A DNA stretch of 33,889 nucleotides from assembly GCA_001769005.1 (NCBI GenBank), contig MENE01000137.1:1-33889 (forward strand). Direction: 5' to 3'. The notes beneath the pieces were generated by a model, which made no database searches, was not told the origin of the DNA, and saw only the letters and a program-made list of their open reading frames with translations. Source of the DNA: Bacteroidetes bacterium GWA2_31_9b. GTDB lineage: Bacteria; Bacteroidota; Bacteroidia; Bacteroidales; UBA12077. A program made the translations under genes and the position numbers. Each line of letters opens with the position of its first letter. Positions within the stretch are counted from its first letter, which is position 1. This document shows positions 8,586 to 25,481 of this stretch, piece after piece.

Positions 8586-9675
8586 TTATTGTCCGGCAAA
8601 CTCCATTAAAAAAGCCTTTATAAATCCATCGATGTTTCCATCAAGGACATCTTGCACGTTCCCAGTTTCAAAGCCTGTGCGAACATCTTTTGCTAATTTA
8701 TACGGATGAAGAACATAATTACGAATTTGCGATCCCCATTCAATTTTTTTCTTTGCACCTTCAATTATCGCTCTTTCGTCCTGTTGTTTACGAAGTTCAA
8801 TTTCGTACAACTGCGACTTCAATAGTTTTAAAGCATTTTCTTTGTTATTTAACTGGGATCGTGTTTCCTGGTTTTCAATAACAATTCCTGAAGGTATATG
8901 TCTTAAACGAACAGCCGTTTCTACTTTATTTACATTTTGCCCACCTGCTCCACTCGAACGGTAGGTTTCAAATTCAATATCTGCAGGATTAATAACAATT
9001 TCAATGGTATCATCTATTACAGGAGAAACATATACAGATGCAAACGATGTATGTCTTTTACCATTTGAATCAAAAGGAGATATACGAACCAACCGGTGTA
9101 CTCCATTTTCACCTCTTAAATATCCATAAGCATATTCTCCCTCAAATTCAAGTGTTACAGTATTAATACCAGCTTCGTCACCTGCCTGATAATAAACTTC
9201 TCTTACTTTGTAATTGTTTCGTTCTCCCCAACGAATGTACATACGCATAAGCATTTCAGCCCAATCATGACTTTCGGTTCCACCTGCTCCAGGGTTAATT
9301 TGTAAATACGCTCCAAGTTTATCTTCCTCCTTACGTAACATATTTTTTAACTCGAGATTTTCAACAATGGCGATTACCGATTTGTATTGATTCTCAACTT
9401 CAGATTCTTCAATTTCTCCATCTTTATAGAAGTCAATGGCTAGTTTTAACTCATTTATTTGAGTTTCAATTATTTTAAATGCAGTTGTCCATTCTTTTAA
9501 ACTGGCAATATATTTTAATTGTTTTTCGGCTTCAGATGGGTCGTTCCAGAAGTTGGGAGCTTGCGTTTTTTGTTCTTCTTCGTCAATGCGAATTAACTTA
9601 TTTTCGATGTCAAAGATGCCTCCTAAGCGCATCTTTTCGCTTTTCAAGATCTTTAAATTGTTCGGTTAAAATCAT
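8586..9675 (-). CDS. prfB: Peptide chain release factor 2, expressed through a programmed +1 frameshift: join(9675..9613, 9611..8586) on the minus strand
   Basis: SPF tripeptide (RISPFDS) and GGQ ([10 protein letters not shown]) are present. A 21-codon leader ORF ([21 protein letters not shown]) ends in CTT TGA C. The main frame continues +1 as DIENK... Confidence 0.92.
9609..9624 (-). promoter_or_regulatory. RF2 autoregulatory +1 frameshift site
   Basis: The minus strand reads AGGAGG CAT CTT TGA C. This is an SD-like element 3 nt upstream of the slippery CTT plus in-frame TGA-C, as in the E. coli prfB site. Confidence 0.9.
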
Positions 9676-11922: not shown

Positions 11923-13002
11923 ATGAACGATTGTATGTCGCACGAAAAATATATGCAAAGATGCATAGAGTTAGCAAAAAATGGTTTCGGGAATACATCA
12001 CCAAACCCTATGGTTGGTTCCGTTATAATAAATAACAATAAAATTATTGGAGAAGGATATCACCGAAAATATGGTGAAGCACATGCTGAAGTAAATGCAA
12101 TTCAGTCAGTAGTTAATAAAGAGCTTTTAAAACAATCCACAATCTATGTAAATTTAGAGCCATGTGCTCATTTTGGCAAAACACCTCCGTGTGCTAACTT
12201 AATTGCTAGTATGGGAATACCAAATGTTGTTATTGGAACAATTGATTCAGTAGCACATGCTTCCGGAAAAGGAATAGAGATTCTCAAAAATGCCGGATGT
12301 AATGTAATTACAGGTGTATTAGAAAAAGAATCGAGGGAATTAAATAAGCGATTTTTTACATTTCATGAAAAAAAGAGACCCTATATTATATTAAAATGGG
12401 CAGAAACATCCGATGGATATATTGATATCCAGAAAATGAAAAAGACAAATATTGAACCGACATGGATTACTAATAATCTATCAAAAGCAATAGTTCATAA
12501 GTGGCGAGGTGAAGAAGATGCTATTTTGGTTGGAACAAATACCATAATCAGCGATAATCCAAATCTTACAACAAGATGCTGGGAAGGAAAAAACCCTGTT
12601 CGTATTGTTCTTGATCGTGAACTAAAATTAGAATCAACAAGCCATGTTTTTAATAGCGAAGCTGAAACAATTGTTATTGCTGATAAAAAATTTAAAAATA
12701 AAATAGATGAAATACAGTTGAAAAATGTTGGTATTGAATTTGTAGATTTTTCATTTGATTTTACAAATCAACTATTTGCAGCATTAATTAAAAGAAATAT
12801 TCAATCTGTAATTATTGAAGGCGGAGCCAAAGTTTTGAATTATTTTATAAATCAAGTATTGTGGGATGAAGCAAGGGTATTTATAGGTGAGAAACAATTT
12901 GGATTAGGAGTTAAAGCTCCAGTATTAGAAAAAAGAATATTTTTGGAGGAGAAATTTGGTAATAGTAAGCTGTTATTAATTAAAAATTTTCATTACATTT
13001 AA
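11923..13002 (+). CDS. ribD: Bifunctional riboflavin biosynthesis protein RibD (deaminase/reductase)
   Basis: CMP/dCMP-type deaminase zinc motifs (HAEVNA, PCAHFGKTPPC) are followed by a RibD C-terminal reductase domain. The start is ATG 11923 or 11935. Confidence 0.9.
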   Translation: MNDCMSHEKYMQRCIELAKNGFGNTSPNPMVGSVIINNNKIIGEGYHRKYGEAHAEVNAIQSVVNKELLKQSTIYVNLEPCAHFGKTPPCANLIASMGIPNVVIGTIDSVAHASGKGIEILKNAGCNVITGVLEKESRELNKRFFTFHEKKRPYIILKWAETSDGYIDIQKMKKTNIEPTWITNNLSKAIVHKWRGEEDAILVGTNTIISDNPNLTTRCWEGKNPVRIVLDRELKLESTSHVFNSEAETIVIADKKFKNKIDEIQLKNVGIEFVDFSFDFTNQLFAALIKRNIQSVIIEGGAKVLNYFINQVLWDEARVFIGEKQFGLGVKAPVLEKRIFLEEKFGNSKLLLIKNFHYI

Positions 13003-13118
13003 GCATTATAATGAAACGAATTGATAAAAAATTTCGTAAAATTAAAAGCTTTATTAAATTTGATTAAAATTAATTTAAAAATATAAACCTAAAGAATAAT
13101 ATCTAAAAGTTAAATAAT

Positions 13119-15476
13119 ATGAGAAATATGAAATTTAAACGAATGTTAATCTTTACTCCATTGTTATTGGTTTTGTTTTCACTTGTTGAATGTAGTCCAA
13201 AACTTTATAATACAGGTAAAGATTTTGCAGCAGCAGGTAATTATCAAGATGCAATTACTCAGTATACACAACAAATTGCTGAAAAACCTGAATTTACAGA
13301 TGCTTATATCGCAAGAGCGGAAGCTTATGAAAAAATGGGTAACCTTACTGAAGCTGCAGGGGACTATAAAAGAGCAACATCTTTTGATGAAAAAAATGCT
13401 TCCTATTTTTACAACTCAGGAAGATTGTATTTCGAGTTAAAAGATTATAATGAAGCAATATCTATGCTTTCAAAAGCAACTACGTTAGATAAAAAACATA
13501 TAAAAGCATTTAAACTAAAAAGAGATTCTTATATTGAATTAAAAGAATTTGATAAAGCTCTTAAAGAAAGTGATGCAATTCTTGCTTTGGAACAAGAAGC
13601 TAAAAATTTTTACTGGCATGGTTATATCAATGATAAATTAGGAAATTACAATGTTTCTGAAACATTCTTTAAAAAGTCGATAGAAAAATCTCCATCAACT
13701 TTAGAAGCATATATTTCTCTTGCTGATGTTCTTTTAAAATCAAAAAAATTAGACGAATCACTTTCAACATGTAATAAGGCACTTTCTATTGATGATAAAA
13801 ACAAAGAAGCACTTTGGATTCGTAGTAAAGTATATCGCGAAAAAATTGACTATACAAAAGCTATTGACGATTTATCAAAAATTATAATTTTCTCACCGTC
13901 AGATGATAATGCTTATTATACACGTGGATTATATTCTCAGGAGTTTAATAAACATCAAGATGCAATTAACGATTTTAGTAAAGTAATCTCTCTTAATTCA
14001 AAAAATGCACTTGCATATTTTAACAGAGCTAAATCTTTTGAAGAAATAACACAATACGCAAAAGCTGTAGCAGACTATAAAGTTTATTTGTCTTTATCTG
14101 ACAGTAAAGATGCTGATGCCCAATCAAGATTAGAGTTGGCAAATAAAAGATTGTTTGAATTAAACAGAGAATCAAATAAACCAGCTCTTGAGTTTATTCA
14201 GCCTATACAACTAGAAGCAACAAAAATAAATGTAATACAAAATGCTACTACTGCAACTTTTAAAGGTGTAATAAAAGATGAAAGTTCAATTCAGTATGCA
14301 AAAATTGAAGGAGTAGATGTTAAATTTATCGAAGGCTCAGCAAATAATGAATTTGAAGTTATTGTAGATGTTACCGGTAAAGAAGCTATTTCAGTTGCGG
14401 TGGCTGATATATACAACAATGTATTGGCCTCTACTTTAATTATAAATAGAACTGAAATTAATGCTCCACAAATTTCATTAATTGCTCCTTTCGCTTCTAC
14501 ATCTGGAGAAGTTTACCTTGCAGTAGATAATAGGAAGTTATATGTTGAAGGACGTATATCTGATGAAAATTTAATTAAAAGTATATCTGTTGAAGATATG
14601 AATGCAAGTTATGCTGTTGAAACTAAAAACCCAGAATTCTTTGCAACTATTGATATTGCAAATAAAAATAAATTTGTAGTTAAAGCAGAAGATATTTATG
14701 GCAATATAACTACTCAGGAATTTAAAATTAACCGAGAAGCATTCGATATTTCTCAGGATAATCCGATGGGCAAAACATGGGTAATATTTATTGAAAACTC
14801 ATCGTATGAAACATTTGCAAGTCTTGATGGACCAGTAAAAGATGTCAGCATGATGAAAGCTGCATTAGCAAATTATAAAGTGCATAATATTGTTCACAAA
14901 AAAGACATGACAAAAGAACAAATGGAAAAGTTCTTTTCAATTGAACTTCGTGATTTAGTTAGAAGCAATCAGGTAAATTCTCTATTAGTTTGGTATGCTG
15001 GCCATGGAAAATCTGTTAACGAAACTGGATATTGGGTTCCAATTGATGCAAAACGAGATGATGAATTCACCTATTTCAATATTAATACTTTGAAAGCAGC
15101 ATTACAATCATATTCACAATTTGTTACACATACTCTGGTTATTACCGATGCATGTGAGTCTGGACCTACATTTTATCAAGCTATGCGTTCAGGCTTAAAA
15201 GAAAGAGATTGTGGTGATTGGGAAGCTACTAAATTTAAATCATCACAAGTGCTATCATCTGCAGGTTACGAATTAGCTGTTGATAATTCTCAATTTACCA
15301 AAACATTTGCAAATTCATTAATGAATAACCCTAATGCATGTTTACCTATTGAGAATATTGTTTCAAAAGTAACTGTAGCAGTTGCTAAAAGTGGAAGTCA
15401 AAAACCTCAGTTTGGTAAAATTGATGGACTAGTTGATGAAGGAGGTACTTTCTTCTTTATTACAAAAGATAAATAA
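13119..15476 (+). CDS. Exported TPR-repeat protein with two tandem beta-sandwich repeats and a C-terminal caspase-like (peptidase C14) domain
   Basis: Signal or lipoprotein leader (LLLVLFSLVEC). About nine TPR units fill roughly aa 30-340. Two repeats of about 95 aa each end in ..DIY(N/G)N...IN R. The C14 dyad context is WYAGHG (His codon 15003-15005) and ITDACESG (Cys codon 15153-15155). Confidence 0.8.
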   Translation: MRNMKFKRMLIFTPLLLVLFSLVECSPKLYNTGKDFAAAGNYQDAITQYTQQIAEKPEFTDAYIARAEAYEKMGNLTEAAGDYKRATSFDEKNASYFYNSGRLYFELKDYNEAISMLSKATTLDKKHIKAFKLKRDSYIELKEFDKALKESDAILALEQEAKNFYWHGYINDKLGNYNVSETFFKKSIEKSPSTLEAYISLADVLLKSKKLDESLSTCNKALSIDDKNKEALWIRSKVYREKIDYTKAIDDLSKIIIFSPSDDNAYYTRGLYSQEFNKHQDAINDFSKVISLNSKNALAYFNRAKSFEEITQYAKAVADYKVYLSLSDSKDADAQSRLELANKRLFELNRESNKPALEFIQPIQLEATKINVIQNATTATFKGVIKDESSIQYAKIEGVDVKFIEGSANNEFEVIVDVTGKEAISVAVADIYNNVLASTLIINRTEINAPQISLIAPFASTSGEVYLAVDNRKLYVEGRISDENLIKSISVEDMNASYAVETKNPEFFATIDIANKNKFVVKAEDIYGNITTQEFKINREAFDISQDNPMGKTWVIFIENSSYETFASLDGPVKDVSMMKAALANYKVHNIVHKKDMTKEQMEKFFSIELRDLVRSNQVNSLLVWYAGHGKSVNETGYWVPIDAKRDDEFTYFNINTLKAALQSYSQFVTHTLVITDACESGPTFYQAMRSGLKERDCGDWEATKFKSSQVLSSAGYELAVDNSQFTKTFANSLMNNPNACLPIENIVSKVTVAVAKSGSQKPQFGKIDGLVDEGGTFFFITKDK

Positions 15477-15486
15477 ATTGTAAACT

Positions 15487-18400
15487 ATGGATCCTATTCA
15501 TAATCAGGAAATAATAAAAGTTATTCGCTTATTTAAGCGAATAACTTTTTTTTATGCAGTCTTCATTCTTTTCACAAGTAGTGTAAAGGGTCAAACGTAT
15601 TATTTCGACTATTATAGTGTTAAAGAAGGATTAGCACAATCAAAAGTTTATAGTGTAATTCAAGAAAATCAAGGATATTTATGGATTGGGACAGAAAGTG
15701 GAGTCTCGAAATTCGATGGAGTTACGTTTATAAATTATACCACAGAAGATGGTCTTGCCGAAGGAGGTGTAAAAACTCTTTTTAAAGATTCAAATGGCTC
15801 AATTTGGATGGGTCATAAATCAGGAGGTATATCTGTTTTTATAAATGGAGAAATAAGTATTCATCCTATTAGTTCAATTATTAAAGGAGATATTACAAGT
15901 TTTATTGAAGATAATGAAAAACAGTTGTGGGTAACAACATATGGAGATGGGCTAATAAGAATTGATAATCCATACGAATTAGATGCATCTAAACTTACAT
16001 ATGAGCAATATAAAGGCAAGCGATTGAGTGACAGGGTAGTAACAAGCACTAAAGCATTTGGCGATACTCTTTTCTTTGTAACTGATTTAGGTATAAAAAA
16101 ATTCAATAAATCAGAGAACTCATTTTCCAACTATTTGCCCAAAGGCCTTACATCCTATTTCCCAACAACTATGATGCATCAGGATAGAAAAGGTGATATC
16201 TGGTTTGGAACATTTCATGGTGGATTGTATAGGTATATTTTAAAAGAAAATAAATTTGTTATTTATGATTCGCGTGATGGATTGGCTAATAATTGGATAA
16301 GCACAATTATTGAAGATAGTAATGGAAATATTTGGGTCGGAACATGGGGAGGAGGAGTTACAAAATTTTCAGGAGATTCTTACAAAACATATAACAATAT
16401 TAATGGTTTGATAGATCCAAAGATTTATTGTATTAATGAAGATGTTGAAGGGAATATACTTATTGGAACAAATGAACATGGACTTGCTGTATTTAAAGGA
16501 GAAAAATTTATTACATATAGTACTGCTGATGGATTAGCCGACCAGCAAATATGGTCCGTTATCGAAGATAAATATAAAAACTTTTGGTTTGGAACTAATA
16601 AAGGCATTAGTGTTTATAATCCAACAGCAAAAGAACCAAGTAAAAAATTTACATATTACAATCAAGAAAAGAATTCAGTAGGAAATCAGATTCGGTTTTT
16701 AAAAAATGACAGAGACGGAAATCTTTGGGTTGGAACAAATGATAACGGGTTAAATATGTATGATTTCTCAACAGGAAGATTTATATATAACATGGTTGTT
16801 AATAGGTATATAAACAGTTTAATTGTTACAGCGTTGGATATTGACAGGCAAAATCAATTGTGGGTTGGAACAATTGATGGCCTGGTTTATTATGATATTA
16901 ATAATGATAAAAGTACAATTCTTACCCAGATTAATGGATTAAGTGGGAATGAAATTTCATCGATTTATGTTGATTCTAAAGATAAAGTATGGGTTGGAGT
17001 AGTTAATAAAGGTTTAAATTTTATACAGGATACTTTAATTAAACAAGTTGATATTGAAGGTTTGCTTACTCCTGAATGTATGGTTGAAGATAAAGATGGA
17101 AATATATGGATTGGAACTAATAATAAAGGAATTTTTGTTTATAATGGGAACCAAGTAATTAGAACCATAACTCAGAACGATGGTTTACTCTCAAATTTAA
17201 TTACTCAACTAAATATCGATATTGAAAATAATATATATGTAGGAACCAGTCAGGGATTAAATAAGATTGATAACAAAGGGAATATTCATACTTATACTGA
17301 AAAGAGTGGGTTTACAGGAATTGAAGCCAAAAAAAATGCAACATACAGAGATAATGATGGAAATTTATGGTTTGGTACTGTAAAAGGAGTAGTAAAATAT
17401 CAACCCAAAATGGAAATTGATGTACCAAAAGAACCACTAACGCATATTTCAAAGCTTCGGGTAAATTTAAAAGATCGAATAATGAAATCCGATCAGAAGT
17501 TCAATTATCGTGAAAATTCAATAATATTTGATTACAATAGTATATGTTTGACTAATCCTGATGCAGTAAAATATCAGATTATGCTTGATCCTGCAGATCA
17601 TGAATGGAGACCTGTTACTGATCAAACAATGGTAAACTACTCTTCTTTAGCTCCCGATAAATATACTTTTAAAGTAAAGGCGATGAATAGTTCGGGAGTA
17701 TGGAATACAGAACCTGTAACTTATACATTTACAATTTCACCTCCATTTTACAAATCATGGTGGTTTATTTCAGCAATAATAATTTTGGGATCTATAGGAA
17801 TAATTTCTTATATAAAAGTTCGTGAAAAAAACCTTATAAAAGAGAAAAGGATTCTTGAAGAAAAAGTGGCTGAGAGAACTGCTGAAGTTGTCCAAAAAAG
17901 TATTGAGATAGAGAAAAAAAATAAAGATATTACAGATAGTATTAAATACGCTAAAAGAATACAAACAGCCGTACTACCGCCCGAAATACCTTTTGAAAAC
18001 ACATTCGTTTTGTATAGGCCAAAAGATATTGTGAGTGGTGATTTTTATTGGTTGGAAACAGTTGGAAATAAGGAAATGATTGCCGCAGTTGATTGTACCG
18101 GACATGGTGTTCCTGGCGCTTTCCTTGCAATTCTTGGACATAGTATGCTTACTAAAATAGTTCGTGAATATGGAATTCTTCAACCTGCAGAAATATTAGA
18201 CAGGCTTGATGTTGAGATTATCAGCGCTCTTCACCAAAAGGATGTTACTGGTGAACGTATTGTAAATGATGGAATGGATTTGGCTATTATGTGTTATAAT
18301 AAAGACACACAAATACTTGAATATGCAGGAGCATATAATCCATTATTCCATATCAGGAATGGGGAACTTGAAGAAATTAAAGCCGATCGATTTCCTATTG

Positions 18401-18675
18401 GTATGACGAATATTCTAGAAAACAAAAAATTTACAAACCATGAAATAAAAATTGAAAAAGGAGATGCTTTTTATATTTTCTCTGATGGATATGCAGATCA
18501 ATTTGGTGGCGATGATGGTCGTAAATTGAGAAAAAAGAATATGAAAGATCTAATAGTTAGTTATCAAAATATTCCAATGAAAGAACAAAGCAAAGAACTT
18601 GAAAACTACATTGTGAATTGGATGGCTAATTACGAACAGGTTGATGATATTGTTGTAATTGGAAGAGGATTTTAA
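15487..18675 (+). CDS. Transmembrane sensor phosphatase: periplasmic Reg_prop beta-propeller repeats plus Y_Y_Y domain, a TM helix, a coiled coil, and a SpoIIE/PP2C Ser/Thr phosphatase
   Basis: N-terminal anchor helix. More than 12 repeats of the W(I/V)GT..G(L/V) two-component-regulator propeller type. A Y_Y_Y-like module (KYQIMLDP..W..V....VNYSSLAPDKYTFKVKA). TM helix WWFISAIIILGSIGIISYI. PP2C/SpoIIE motifs SGDFYW, DCTGHGVPGA, NDGMD, SDGYADQ and VDDI. Confidence 0.85.
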   Translation: MDPIHNQEIIKVIRLFKRITFFYAVFILFTSSVKGQTYYFDYYSVKEGLAQSKVYSVIQENQGYLWIGTESGVSKFDGVTFINYTTEDGLAEGGVKTLFKDSNGSIWMGHKSGGISVFINGEISIHPISSIIKGDITSFIEDNEKQLWVTTYGDGLIRIDNPYELDASKLTYEQYKGKRLSDRVVTSTKAFGDTLFFVTDLGIKKFNKSENSFSNYLPKGLTSYFPTTMMHQDRKGDIWFGTFHGGLYRYILKENKFVIYDSRDGLANNWISTIIEDSNGNIWVGTWGGGVTKFSGDSYKTYNNINGLIDPKIYCINEDVEGNILIGTNEHGLAVFKGEKFITYSTADGLADQQIWSVIEDKYKNFWFGTNKGISVYNPTAKEPSKKFTYYNQEKNSVGNQIRFLKNDRDGNLWVGTNDNGLNMYDFSTGRFIYNMVVNRYINSLIVTALDIDRQNQLWVGTIDGLVYYDINNDKSTILTQINGLSGNEISSIYVDSKDKVWVGVVNKGLNFIQDTLIKQVDIEGLLTPECMVEDKDGNIWIGTNNKGIFVYNGNQVIRTITQNDGLLSNLITQLNIDIENNIYVGTSQGLNKIDNKGNIHTYTEKSGFTGIEAKKNATYRDNDGNLWFGTVKGVVKYQPKMEIDVPKEPLTHISKLRVNLKDRIMKSDQKFNYRENSIIFDYNSICLTNPDAVKYQIMLDPADHEWRPVTDQTMVNYSSLAPDKYTFKVKAMNSSGVWNTEPVTYTFTISPPFYKSWWFISAIIILGSIGIISYIKVREKNLIKEKRILEEKVAERTAEVVQKSIEIEKKNKDITDSIKYAKRIQTAVLPPEIPFENTFVLYRPKDIVSGDFYWLETVGNKEMIAAVDCTGHGVPGAFLAILGHSMLTKIVREYGILQPAEILDRLDVEIISALHQKDVTGERIVNDGMDLAIMCYNKDTQILEYAGAYNPLFHIRNGELEEIKADRFPIGMTNILENKKFTNHEIKIEKGDAFYIFSDGYADQFGGDDGRKLRKKNMKDLIVSYQNIPMKEQSKELENYIVNWMANYEQVDDIVVIGRGF

Positions 18676-18698: not shown

Positions 18699-18738
18699 TG
18701 ACCTTCAGTATCATATATTGAAGGTCATTTTTTTATTT
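18699..18738 (+). terminator. Rho-independent terminator after the sensor-phosphatase gene
   Basis: TGACCTTCA (18699-18707) pairs with TGAAGGTCA (18719-18727), followed by TTTTTTTATTTT. Confidence 0.65.
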
Positions 18739-23984: not shown

Positions 23985-24365
23985 CTATTGAATTTGAACC
24001 AATTCAAAAGGGATTTCAATAGCGGATTTAAACTCTTCTCCTTTTTCTTCAATAAAGGTATCGTCGGCATTGAAATACCACGATATATTGATTTTTTTTC
24101 CGGTTTGTAAAACTTTTTGAAGAGTGAATAATATTTCGTAAATAAATTTCCCTGAAAGAGAATTAAAATAATCAAGCCTAAAAATTAAATGGGTTTGTTC
24201 ATTTGGATTCAAAGTATAAACTTCGAGCCATTGAATAAGTGGAATAAAAAATTTTGATGATTCTTCAGGAAAAGAGTTTCCAGTTATTTCAAAAATGTTT
24301 TTGTGAGGATTAAAATCAATTTTGGGTTTATCTTCAGAACCTTCACAAAAATATCTCTCAAACAT
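23985..24365 (-). CDS. DUF1987 / SiaC-like partner-switch phosphoprotein
   Basis: PKIDFNPHKNIFEITGNSFPEESSKFFIPLIQWLEVY ... FRLDYFNSLSGKFIYEILFTLQ ... ISWYFNADDTFIEEKGEEF matches the DUF1987 pattern (G.S.PE....FY.P...WL..Y / L.YFNTSS.K / W.Y...D.D..E.GE.F). Length is 126 aa. Confidence 0.75.
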   Translation of the reverse strand: MFERYFCEGSEDKPKIDFNPHKNIFEITGNSFPEESSKFFIPLIQWLEVYTLNPNEQTHLIFRLDYFNSLSGKFIYEILFTLQKVLQTGKKINISWYFNADDTFIEEKGEEFKSAIEIPFELVQIQ

Positions 24366-24377
24366 AACTACAAATTA

Positions 24378-25481
24378 TTATACGACAATATGAATAGTGA
24401 AAAATGATTTATCGTTATCAATTTTCTCAAAATTAAATACAAGGGGTTCAGATGTTCTTCTAGCAATATCTATCAATCCAATTCCTGCACCTCTTTTCTC
24501 AGGATCGTATCTTTCTTTAAGTTTAGAAAAATAGAATTCCTTAAGATTTTCAATACTTAACTTATTTAAATCCTGAAGATGGTTTTTAAGTTCTTCTACT
24601 TTATTGTTTTCAATAAAATTACCTGCATTTATTATATAAGTTGATTCTGATTTTCCAAGCAGAATAATTCCCTCACTCATTTTTTGATTTTTAAAACCAT
24701 GTTTGCTGATATTTTGCAATAATTCAACAATAATATGAAACACTTTTTTCTTTGATGACGAGCTTTTGAAAACACTTTTTAGATTGTTATCTACAATTTT
24801 CAAAACAGGCAAAATTGATTCCTGTGCAAAATCCCCTTTCTGAACTACAAGAATATTTTCTTCTTTCATTTTTTTATGAAATATAATCGCATCAGAAATT
24901 GGAGCATGTGTTGTATGTGATTCCTTAATTGAATCTTCTGATTGTAATAATATTTGATTATAAAAATACGACATGTATTTGTCAAAATCTTCGAAGGTAT
25001 ATTGTAATTTCTGGCCTGATTTACGTGCCATTTCAATTAGCCCTAAACCAGCTCCACCTTTTCCTGATATTTCATGATGTTCGAGTACATGCAAATAAAG
25101 ATCTCGTAGTTCATCTTTATTGAGGCTATTTACAACTTTTAACTGATCTTCGATTTTGCGAATATTTTTTTTAACAACTAAATTCCCGGATGCAATACAA
25201 TAAATATCATCCCAATTTCGAGTAAGAAAAAAACTGTTATTTTTATTTTTTTCAAGGTCGTTAATCATTTCCCCATGTCGAATAATGTTCTGAAAACATT
25301 CAGCCATAAGAAATGAAGCCTTCTTTTTCATTTTTGAAAGACCTTCAACATTATTAATATTATAATCGCTAAGCTCTATTAGCTTATTGGTTATTTCGTC
25401 GCTAATAACGCCATTATATAATAAACATAAATTATCGGTTTTTATCCTATCATAAAACCAGTAGGTAGTATTGATATCCAT
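24378..25481 (-). CDS. Tandem (duplicated) SiaB-like / RsbW-type GHKL serine-threonine protein kinase
   Basis: There are two modules of about 180 aa. Each has an N-box-like motif (ECFQNIIRHG and ELLQNISKHG) and a G-box (GKGGAGLGLIEMARKSG and KRGAGIGLIDIARRTS). It lies 12 nt upstream of the DUF1987 gene on the same strand. Confidence 0.65.
   Translation of the reverse strand: MDINTTYWFYDRIKTDNLCLLYNGVISDEITNKLIELSDYNINNVEGLSKMKKKASFLMAECFQNIIRHGEMINDLEKNKNNSFFLTRNWDDIYCIASGNLVVKKNIRKIEDQLKVVNSLNKDELRDLYLHVLEHHEISGKGGAGLGLIEMARKSGQKLQYTFEDFDKYMSYFYNQILLQSEDSIKESHTTHAPISDAIIFHKKMKEENILVVQKGDFAQESILPVLKIVDNNLKSVFKSSSSKKKVFHIIVELLQNISKHGFKNQKMSEGIILLGKSESTYIINAGNFIENNKVEELKNHLQDLNKLSIENLKEFYFSKLKERYDPEKRGAGIGLIDIARRTSEPLVFNFEKIDNDKSFFTIHIVV

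Follow-up and report, generated by a model that had tools for sequence, protein, structure and literature searches.

A conserved Bacteroidota gene pair for an exported caspase-like protein and a predicted sensor phosphatase, with a terminator-like hairpin inside the second coding region

Several described systems have parts in common with the locus reported here. The sensors of Bacteroides hybrid two-component systems (HTCS), among them BT4663 (PDB 4A2L/4A2M), 3V9F and BT4673 (3OTT), combine Reg_prop β-propellers, a Y_Y_Y domain and a membrane helix with an output made of a histidine kinase, a receiver and an AraC domain. In the SiaABCD system of Pseudomonas aeruginosa, the phosphorylation state of SiaC at Thr68 (peptide LLYLNTSSIK) is controlled by SiaA together with SiaB (PMC7647112), and unphosphorylated SiaC activates a diguanylate cyclase (PMC8457831). 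MALT1, the metacaspases and the bacterial orthocaspases, in turn, belong to the C14 proteases of clan CD. In this study, we describe two adjacent genes, here gene 1 and gene 2, in a stretch of 33,889 nucleotides (nt) from Bacteroidetes bacterium GWA2_31_9b (contig MENE01000137.1, positions 1 to 33,889; the window), which bring together a clan CD protease-like protein, an HTCS-type sensor head and a SiaA-type partner-switch phosphatase. Each part is of a known kind, and the combination is uncharacterised. Signalling in Bacteroidota outside the polysaccharide-sensing hybrid two-component systems has, to our knowledge, been little explored.

The product of gene 2 shares with the HTCS sensors the propellers, the Y_Y_Y domain and the membrane helix, whereas its output is a PP2C phosphatase, without histidine kinase, receiver or AraC domain; the gene lies in no polysaccharide utilisation locus, and its partner gene is protease-like rather than a glycoside hydrolase. 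With SiaABCD (PMC7647112, PMC8457831) it has in common a PP2C domain closest to that of SiaA, as well as SiaB- and SiaC-family genes in the same window, the SiaC-family protein having a phosphorylatable Ser at the position of Thr68. The sensor head is, however, unrelated to the N-terminal part of SiaA, the genes belong to two units on opposite strands, 5.3 kb from each other, rather than to one operon, the kinase is tandem-duplicated, and no SiaD-like cyclase, nor any other diguanylate cyclase or GGDEF protein, was seen in the window. The gene 1 protein shares with MALT1, metacaspases and orthocaspases the fold, the motifs YAGHG and D-x-C-x-S-G, and an Asp two residues before the Cys, but it is predicted to be exported, is fused to TPR repeats and two immunoglobulin (Ig)-like domains, and is encoded beside a membrane sensor; its sequence similarity to any solved structure is marginal (E 0.013–0.04). 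A further comparison is with the intra-operon terminators and attenuators that set unequal expression of co-oriented genes. A G:C-cored stem followed by a U-tract, and covariation, are found here too, but the hairpin sits inside the downstream coding sequence, in the n-region of a signal peptide, so that each base serves the stem and the protein at once, and amino-acid changes accompany changes of the stem. The features of the pair, in window coordinates, are the following.

13055–13062, + strand: Bacteroidota-type −7 promoter box TAAATTTG 5′ of gene 1 (read directly)
13119–15476, + strand: gene 1, predicted exported TPR / double β-sandwich / caspase-like C14 protein, 785 residues (open reading frame (ORF), Pfam, alignment, model)
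13119–13193, + strand: predicted signal peptide of gene 1, residues 1–25 (the only hydrophobic segment; type I or II cleavage)
13194–14162, + strand: TPR array, residues 26–348, about nine helix pairs (Pfam, model, Foldseek)
14181–14735, + strand: two tandem β-sandwich (Ig-like) domains, residues 355–446 and 448–539 (internal repeat, model)
14778–15473, + strand: caspase-like C14 domain (PF00656), with His629 at nt 15003–15005 and Cys679 at nt 15153–15155
15487–18675, + strand: gene 2, HTCS-type periplasmic sensor / single membrane helix / SiaA-like PP2C phosphatase, 1062 residues (ORF, Pfam, PDB)
15516–15553, + strand: conserved terminator-like hairpin, 15-bp stem, loop ATTT and T-run, in gene 2 codons 10–23
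15592–17736, + strand: predicted periplasmic sensor head, Reg_prop β-propellers (residues 36–680) and Y_Y_Y (residues 689–750) (Pfam, PDB)
17755–17823, + strand: predicted transmembrane helix of gene 2, residues 757–779 (Kyte-Doolittle 19-residue mean 2.12)
17848–18663, + strand: predicted cytoplasmic coiled linker and PP2C (SpoIIE/SiaA-like) phosphatase domain (NF038263, PDB 6K4E)
18699–18734, + strand: terminator-like hairpin and T-run 3′ of gene 2 (terminator scan)

The pairing of the two genes is real and conserved, and it is not stronger than the local synteny. Homologous loci came from a scan of one genome per species (80 loci, 49–87% identity) and from a metagenome scan (80 more, 37–54% identity to gene 1), and the pairing was counted in the 146 loci that have at least 1 kb of sequence after gene 1. 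A gene 2 homologue follows directly on the same strand in 133 of these, ten of them with a different upstream gene, so the pairing proposed from the window alone is conserved in relatives. The two long same-strand ORFs of the window, with their gap of 10 nt, lie where the first-pass annotation had placed them according to the ORF list, and the distance from the gene 1 stop to the gene 2 start is 3–16 nt in most of about 75 loci. Where enough sequence is available on both sides (93 loci), the order is ribD–gene 1–gene 2 in 72, ribD–gene 1 in ten, gene 1–gene 2 in ten and neither in one. In one case, with a gene 1 homologue of 44% identity, the pair lies between an Omp28-like gene and tex, both flanks having changed, and at another locus (L083) the pair is likewise kept between differing flanks. 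The upstream TAAATTTG box noted earlier was found again, and a TAnnTTTG box stands 43–91 nt 5′ of gene 1 in 19 of the 20 sequences, among them the window, that were checked; the same check found no such box within the final 300 nt of gene 1. The short gap and the lack of a promoter box late in gene 1 speak for co-transcription. Our search of the literature, whose coverage is incomplete so that silence is absence of evidence only, returned no paper on this pairing.

A perfect 15-bp stem with a T-run starts 29 nt into gene 2. It was detected (15516–15549) by the same scan that found the hairpin and T-run after the gene (18699–18727). The earlier view, in which the only strong terminator was the one after gene 2, is wrong. 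The internal hairpin has a minimum free energy of −21.3 kcal/mol (z −3.85), shows the succession of A-run, G:C-cored stem and T-run seen in the intergenic terminators of the window, and is the only strong intragenic hairpin of terminator type there. A hairpin with T-run stands at this position in related loci too. Its stem has often changed, as in GTTATCCGG/CCGGATAAC and GTTACCCAA/TTGGGTAAC, and in a few loci it is unrelated in sequence. Covariation was assessed in 41 aligned loci picked for showing the hairpin: 94.4% of the cells are paired, as compared to 83.6% in shuffles, none of 500 shuffles reaching the observed value, and 12 of the 15 pairs have changes on both sides, while slid controls pair at 39–56%. 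In a count free of that selection, an uninterrupted stem and T-run had to lie in the 140 nt that follow the gene 1 stop. Of the genome loci 47 of 71 qualify and of the metagenome loci 27 of 66, whereas the same test on 1370 control windows taken from within gene 1 finds 2. The peptide shifts together with the stem, from KVIR..RITFF to RVTQ..WVTLF, and in the G:C core of the stem Arg is encoded by two minor codons, CGC (8% of Arg codons) and CGA (16%). Since pairing is kept while both sequence and peptide change, selection appears to act on the structure of the nucleic acid. By its form and position the hairpin looks like an attenuator that would lower gene 2 relative to gene 1 through predicted termination, and, because it lies after the gene 2 start codon, any gene 2 transcript must pass through it. 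The hairpin is a clear instance of a single stretch under selection for its RNA structure as well as for the signal peptide that it encodes, and it offers a simple handle on unequal expression within operons in Bacteroidota.

Two other accounts of the hairpin were tried and rejected. A dispersed repeat element does not fit, as the hairpin arm is unique in the window. Neither does an alternative gene 2 start 3′ of the hairpin: the ATG at 15554 belongs to another frame, which is closed by a stop after 10 codons, and there is no in-frame ATG, GTG or TTG between the hairpin and the hydrophobic core of gene 2. A second, smaller structure, a predicted 7-bp RNA hairpin (UAUGGAU/AUUCAUA, window 15486–15502), encloses the gene 2 start codon.

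In the case of gene 1, export is well supported by the sequence, because signal peptides of two kinds occur across the family and no second hydrophobic segment is present; the protein has a single hydrophobic segment in all, at the N-terminus. The signal peptides end in V-[QE]-C-S in close relatives and in A↓Q-[NTS]-A-K in distant ones (the arrow marks the cleavage site), and Gln at position +1 of signal-peptidase-I substrates, a habit of Bacteroidota, fits the latter. Lipidation is uncertain, the lipobox region reading L-V-E-C in the window and V-Q-C in close relatives, with Glu or Gln before the Cys. Of the leader described earlier as cleavable or lipoprotein, export thus holds and the lipoprotein status stays doubtful. 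Pfam places TPR_1, TPR_2, TPR_8, TPR_11 and TPR_16 over residues ~30–340. The full-length AlphaFold model, with a mean predicted local distance difference test score (pLDDT) of 79.8, shows helices over residues 26–348 at pLDDT >90, followed by two all-β domains and an α/β domain, and Foldseek with this model matches TPR superhelix proteins only. The two β-sandwich units are true tandem repeats (25% identity, E 8e-10; modelled strands at residues 356–445 and 451–538), so that both the TPR array and the tandem repeats read from the sequence at first are confirmed by Pfam, by the internal comparison and by the model. At four loci from metagenome-assembled genomes (MAGs; L064, L073, L078 and L080) the gene 1 match is ~3.2 kb long rather than 2.35 kb, which suggests an insertion or an extra domain.

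The C-terminal domain makes the gene 1 protein a member of the C14 caspase family by profile, dyad and fold, with proteolysis predicted. Peptidase_C14 (PF00656) covers residues 554–765 at E 2.4e-17 and 63.8 bits, the cut-off being 21.4, and the C14 domain is the best-conserved part of the protein in the alignment of homologues. The dyad motifs YAGHG (H629) and DACESG (C679) are present and both residues are invariant in 65 aligned homologues (39–87% identity), which upholds the claim of an intact His/Cys context. H629 aligns by HMMER with the YAGHG histidine of the MALT1 paracaspase, at the marginal E given above, in PDB searches made with the C-terminal half of the protein or its profile, and Cys679 is assigned from the DACESG motif and not by residue-by-residue alignment to a solved structure. 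Modelled alone, the domain reaches pLDDT 82.9 and a predicted template modelling score (pTM) of 0.86, and Foldseek returns the MALT1 paracaspase on top (E 1.1e-10), followed by caspases 3, 7, 8, 9 and 1. The histidine therefore lines up with the C14 dyad, and the signal peptide, as the single hydrophobic segment, places the domain outside the cytoplasm, as had been anticipated. An Asp lies two residues before Cys679, the arrangement of para- and metacaspases, which cut after Arg or Lys; by analogy, this suggests cleavage after Arg or Lys for the gene 1 protein.

Beyond the paired loci, an exhaustive search yielded 113 clusters at E ≤ 1e-30, and the ~780-residue architecture is still found where identity in the C-terminal module is as low as 27%. 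Three deep relatives (loci L091, L092/L093 and L094) have no gene 2 and have lost both His and Cys. The pattern agrees at least with catalysis being of importance wherever the sensor occurs; the comparison rests on three lineages. A metagenome scan for close relatives of the intact-dyad deep homologues P0295, P0311 and P0313 yielded none, the best match being 38%. As separate observations, the pseudo-caspases P0291, P0300, P0318, P0322, P0325 and P0329 have the full TPR-Ig-Ig-caspase-fold architecture with the catalytic His and/or Cys replaced, and one deep lone pseudo-caspase relative still lies directly after ribD.

The double-propeller sensor head of gene 2 is recognised by Pfam (Reg_prop at E 1e-52, followed by Y_Y_Y) and by comparison with PDB, where 4A2L (BT4663) is the best match at 7e-70, followed by 3V9F and 3OTT; the best of four matched stretches aligns residues 342–757 with 4A2L. 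More than 12 Reg_prop repeats had been counted in the first-pass annotation. The Reg_prop head is real, and nine W-x-G-T/H blade motifs are visible in the ectodomain, which leaves the higher count unconfirmed. The same annotation set the head between two membrane segments, of which the one after the head stands: residues 757–779 are the sole segment of the protein that scores as a membrane helix. The N-terminal one is doubtful, since the hydrophobic stretch is short, is followed by VKG↓Q and resembles a cleavable signal peptide. From the sequence, the mature protein probably crosses the membrane once, its sensor part lying outside and its phosphatase domain inside the cell.

The output of gene 2 is a SpoIIE/PP2C phosphatase domain, as first read, on the evidence of Pfam (SpoIIE, residues 864–1058), NF038263 and PDB 6K4E. 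The SiaA profile NF038263 matches residues 788–1059 with 190.8 bits over profile positions 384–654, that is, over its PP2C part only, and it is the only NCBIfam match among phosphatase families; the PP2C domain of SiaA (6K4E, E 5.8e-36) is likewise the only solved PP2C that is matched. The PP2C motifs are present as GDF851, D869-x-x-GHG, DGY1000 and DD1053. A Pfam scan showed no HisKA/HATPase, receiver or AraC domain in gene 2, SpoIIE alone standing beyond the membrane helix. The arrangement Y_Y_Y–membrane helix–SpoIIE is abundant (7997 of 8000 candidates scored had E ≤ 1e-25), and such proteins are routinely named 'SpoIIE family protein phosphatase' or 'RsbU' in the sources, so the architecture of gene 2 is not new in itself. 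At one related locus (L089, CP070687.1, 10001–11403) a gene 2 remnant of 466 residues has Y_Y_Y and SpoIIE only; the usual downstream context (thioredoxin, dnaE, rpsP) is there, a GH2 glycosidase lies upstream, and gene 1 and the propeller are missing. A deletion or rearrangement appears to have taken out gene 1 jointly with the sensor head.

Candidate partners of the phosphatase are encoded in the same window, 5.3 kb downstream of the pair on the opposite strand, in a two-gene operon.

24378–25481, − strand: tandem SiaB-family protein kinase, 367 residues, two SiaB/DUF6272 domains (PF19788, NF038262, PDB 6KKO)
23985–24365, − strand: SiaC-family phosphoprotein, 126 residues (PF09345, PDB 6K4F, 6KKO)

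The kinase matches PF19788 at E 2.1e-68 in two stretches, NF038262 with 252.6 bits (cut-off 85) and chain A of 6KKO at 1.2e-13; the SiaC-family protein matches PF09345 at E 5e-35 and the structures 6K4F and 6KKO at ~1e-11. The residue that aligns with Thr68 of Pseudomonas SiaC is the Ser in YFNSLSGK. No phosphatase is encoded in the operon itself, and the only PP2C of the window is that of gene 2. Judging from these sequence matches, gene 2 likely dephosphorylates the SiaC-family protein. No paper on SiaC-family proteins in Bacteroidota was found in the same incomplete literature, which again is absence of evidence only. At a locus in a Flavobacteriales MAG (L082, 2683–4325) a second SpoIIE phosphatase, with an SBP_bac_3 head, comes directly after the gene 2 homologue, which hints at several sensor phosphatases with different inputs feeding one partner switch.

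Taking these observations jointly, we propose that the locus is a vertically inherited two-gene cassette of Bacteroidales-like lineages, with a shared promoter, an attenuator, a SiaC partner switch and cooperation in the periplasm, a proposal to which we give an even chance. Both genes would be transcribed from the conserved promoter 5′ of gene 1, and the internal hairpin would stop part of the transcripts, so that more of the periplasmic protein than of the membrane sensor would be made; ribosomes initiating on gene 2 may melt the hairpin and so allow read-through. The phosphatase would dephosphorylate the SiaC-family protein and the tandem SiaB-family kinase would oppose it. In the least supported step, the caspase-like protein would act with the sensor in the periplasm, either by making a peptide ligand or by cleaving or binding the ectodomain. 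The enzymes of polysaccharide loci, which make the oligosaccharides bound by HTCS heads, provide an analogy for a peptide ligand, and it is plausible that a protease processing a ligand or the ectodomain gates the sensor. The stronger version, in which a periplasmic caspase-family protease is a proteolytic input that sets SiaC-type phosphorylation, with the amounts of protease and sensor fixed by a terminator in signal-peptide codons, we regard as unlikely; if true, it would be the first signalling role of a caspase homologue in the bacterial envelope. The locus suggests a glycan-type sensor head rewired to a Ser/Thr-phosphatase partner switch, and a sensor that works alongside an exported, dyad-intact caspase-like protein. 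As candidate SiaB and SiaC components lie in the same window, the pathway is testable end to end.

A number of observations weigh against the proposed cassette. The linkage of gene 1 to ribD, an unrelated housekeeping gene, is as frequent as its linkage to gene 2 (82 of 93 loci each), so that the adjacency of the pair could be inherited order. In ten loci an intact-dyad gene 1 has no adjacent gene 2, opposite-strand genes coming next, and the TPR-Ig-Ig-C14 architecture, which also occurs in lineages without gene 2, predates the pairing and is more widespread. The conserved hairpin just inside gene 2 counts against simple co-expression; it is also absent or unrecognisable in ~40–50% of the paired loci, including the distant L054 and L095, and is thus a lineage feature and no requirement of the pair. 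On the side of the partner switch, gene 2 falls far under the SiaA equivalog cut-off (190.8 versus 700 bits), three more distant contigs that were examined have no SiaB/SiaC genes close to the pair, and other PP2C phosphatases elsewhere in the genome could serve the SiaB- and SiaC-family proteins. The C14 models, finally, have low-confidence loops near the active site. The original suggestion that the two proteins form one signalling unit is in this way strengthened by the pairing, the dyad and the topology, and weakened by the ribD linkage, the lone copies of gene 1 and the wider architecture.

Much of this would suit two genes that are neighbours by inherited order only, gene 1 being a general periplasmic protease or scaffold and gene 2 an independent sensor phosphatase: the equal conservation of the ribD–gene 1 adjacency, the ten intact gene 1 copies without gene 2, the architecture in lineages lacking gene 2, and a hairpin that functionally separates the two coding regions. 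Such an arrangement is possible, and in our estimate rather less than probable, given that the same-strand junction is held at 3–16 nt, that no promoter box is seen for gene 2, and that the pair moves jointly into new contexts; the hairpin, moreover, comes after the gene 2 start codon, so that gene 2 transcripts must cross it anyway. The role of gene 1 could also be that of a non-proteolytic co-sensor or adaptor: a partner or ligand, captured by its TPR, Ig-like and caspase-fold domains, would be handed to the propeller head, and catalysis would be dispensable. TPR arrays are typically binding modules, and several family members that lack His and/or Cys keep the 780-residue architecture, so the scaffold is functional without catalysis. 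However, no gene 1 copy observed next to a gene 2 has lost the dyad, conservation within the protein is highest in the C14 domain, and the pseudo-enzymes examined are copies without gene 2, which makes the adaptor role quite improbable.

Most discussion of bacterial caspase homologues treats them as effectors of death or defence in the cytoplasm, and those with repeat domains often belong to conflict or programmed-death systems, in which a caspase-like effector would here be triggered by the sensor. The only matches in this direction are weak, namely a PADLOC 'caspase' model (E 9.5e-5, 19.8 bits) and an EACC1-associated caspase model (40 bits, with a cut-off of 140), so that the defence-system libraries (PADLOC, EACC1-type model) give no match at a meaningful score. 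Together with the export of the gene 1 protein, this makes a conflict system unlikely, and the stable synteny among housekeeping genes (prmC, ribD, rpsT, mpl) and a base composition like that of the surroundings leave it barely credible to us. With regard to the palindrome at 15516–15549, it might be something other than an attenuator: a protein-binding operator, an mRNA 3′-end stabiliser after processing, or the by-product of a conserved peptide. It is indeed a perfect DNA palindrome, and the peptide KVIR..RITFF is conserved among close relatives. Yet pairing is kept while bases and amino acids change, and unrelated stems occupy the same place in some loci; this preservation of structure amid sequence change argues against a sequence-specific site or a constraint on the peptide. 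The A-run, G:C-cored stem and T-run resemble those of the window's intergenic terminators, and a stabiliser would still give differential expression of both genes. We therefore hold these functions to be very improbable and keep to the attenuator.

The pair is embedded among housekeeping genes (prfB, recX, prmC, ribD, a LOG-family gene, rpsT, tRNA-Glu and mpl), whose order is kept in relatives, and base composition is even over the region. Searched with Rfam at gathering thresholds, the window contains nothing except two tRNAs. The release-factor gene prfB (8586–9647, − strand) has a classical +1 programmed frameshift site, a known phenomenon in this gene, which reads AGG AGG CAT CTT TGA C (9609–9615, − strand); its ATG is at 9674, and it is because of the frameshift that the ORF was called from a TTG in the mechanical list. 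The Shine-Dalgarno-like AGGAGG of this site is notable for a Bacteroidota genome. The mechanical ORFs of prmC (− strand, TTG start) and ribD (+ strand) overlap head to head by 36 nt (11923–11958); homologues of prmC align only from about residue 14–20, so that prmC probably begins at a more internal codon and its overlap with ribD probably results from the way the ORFs were called.

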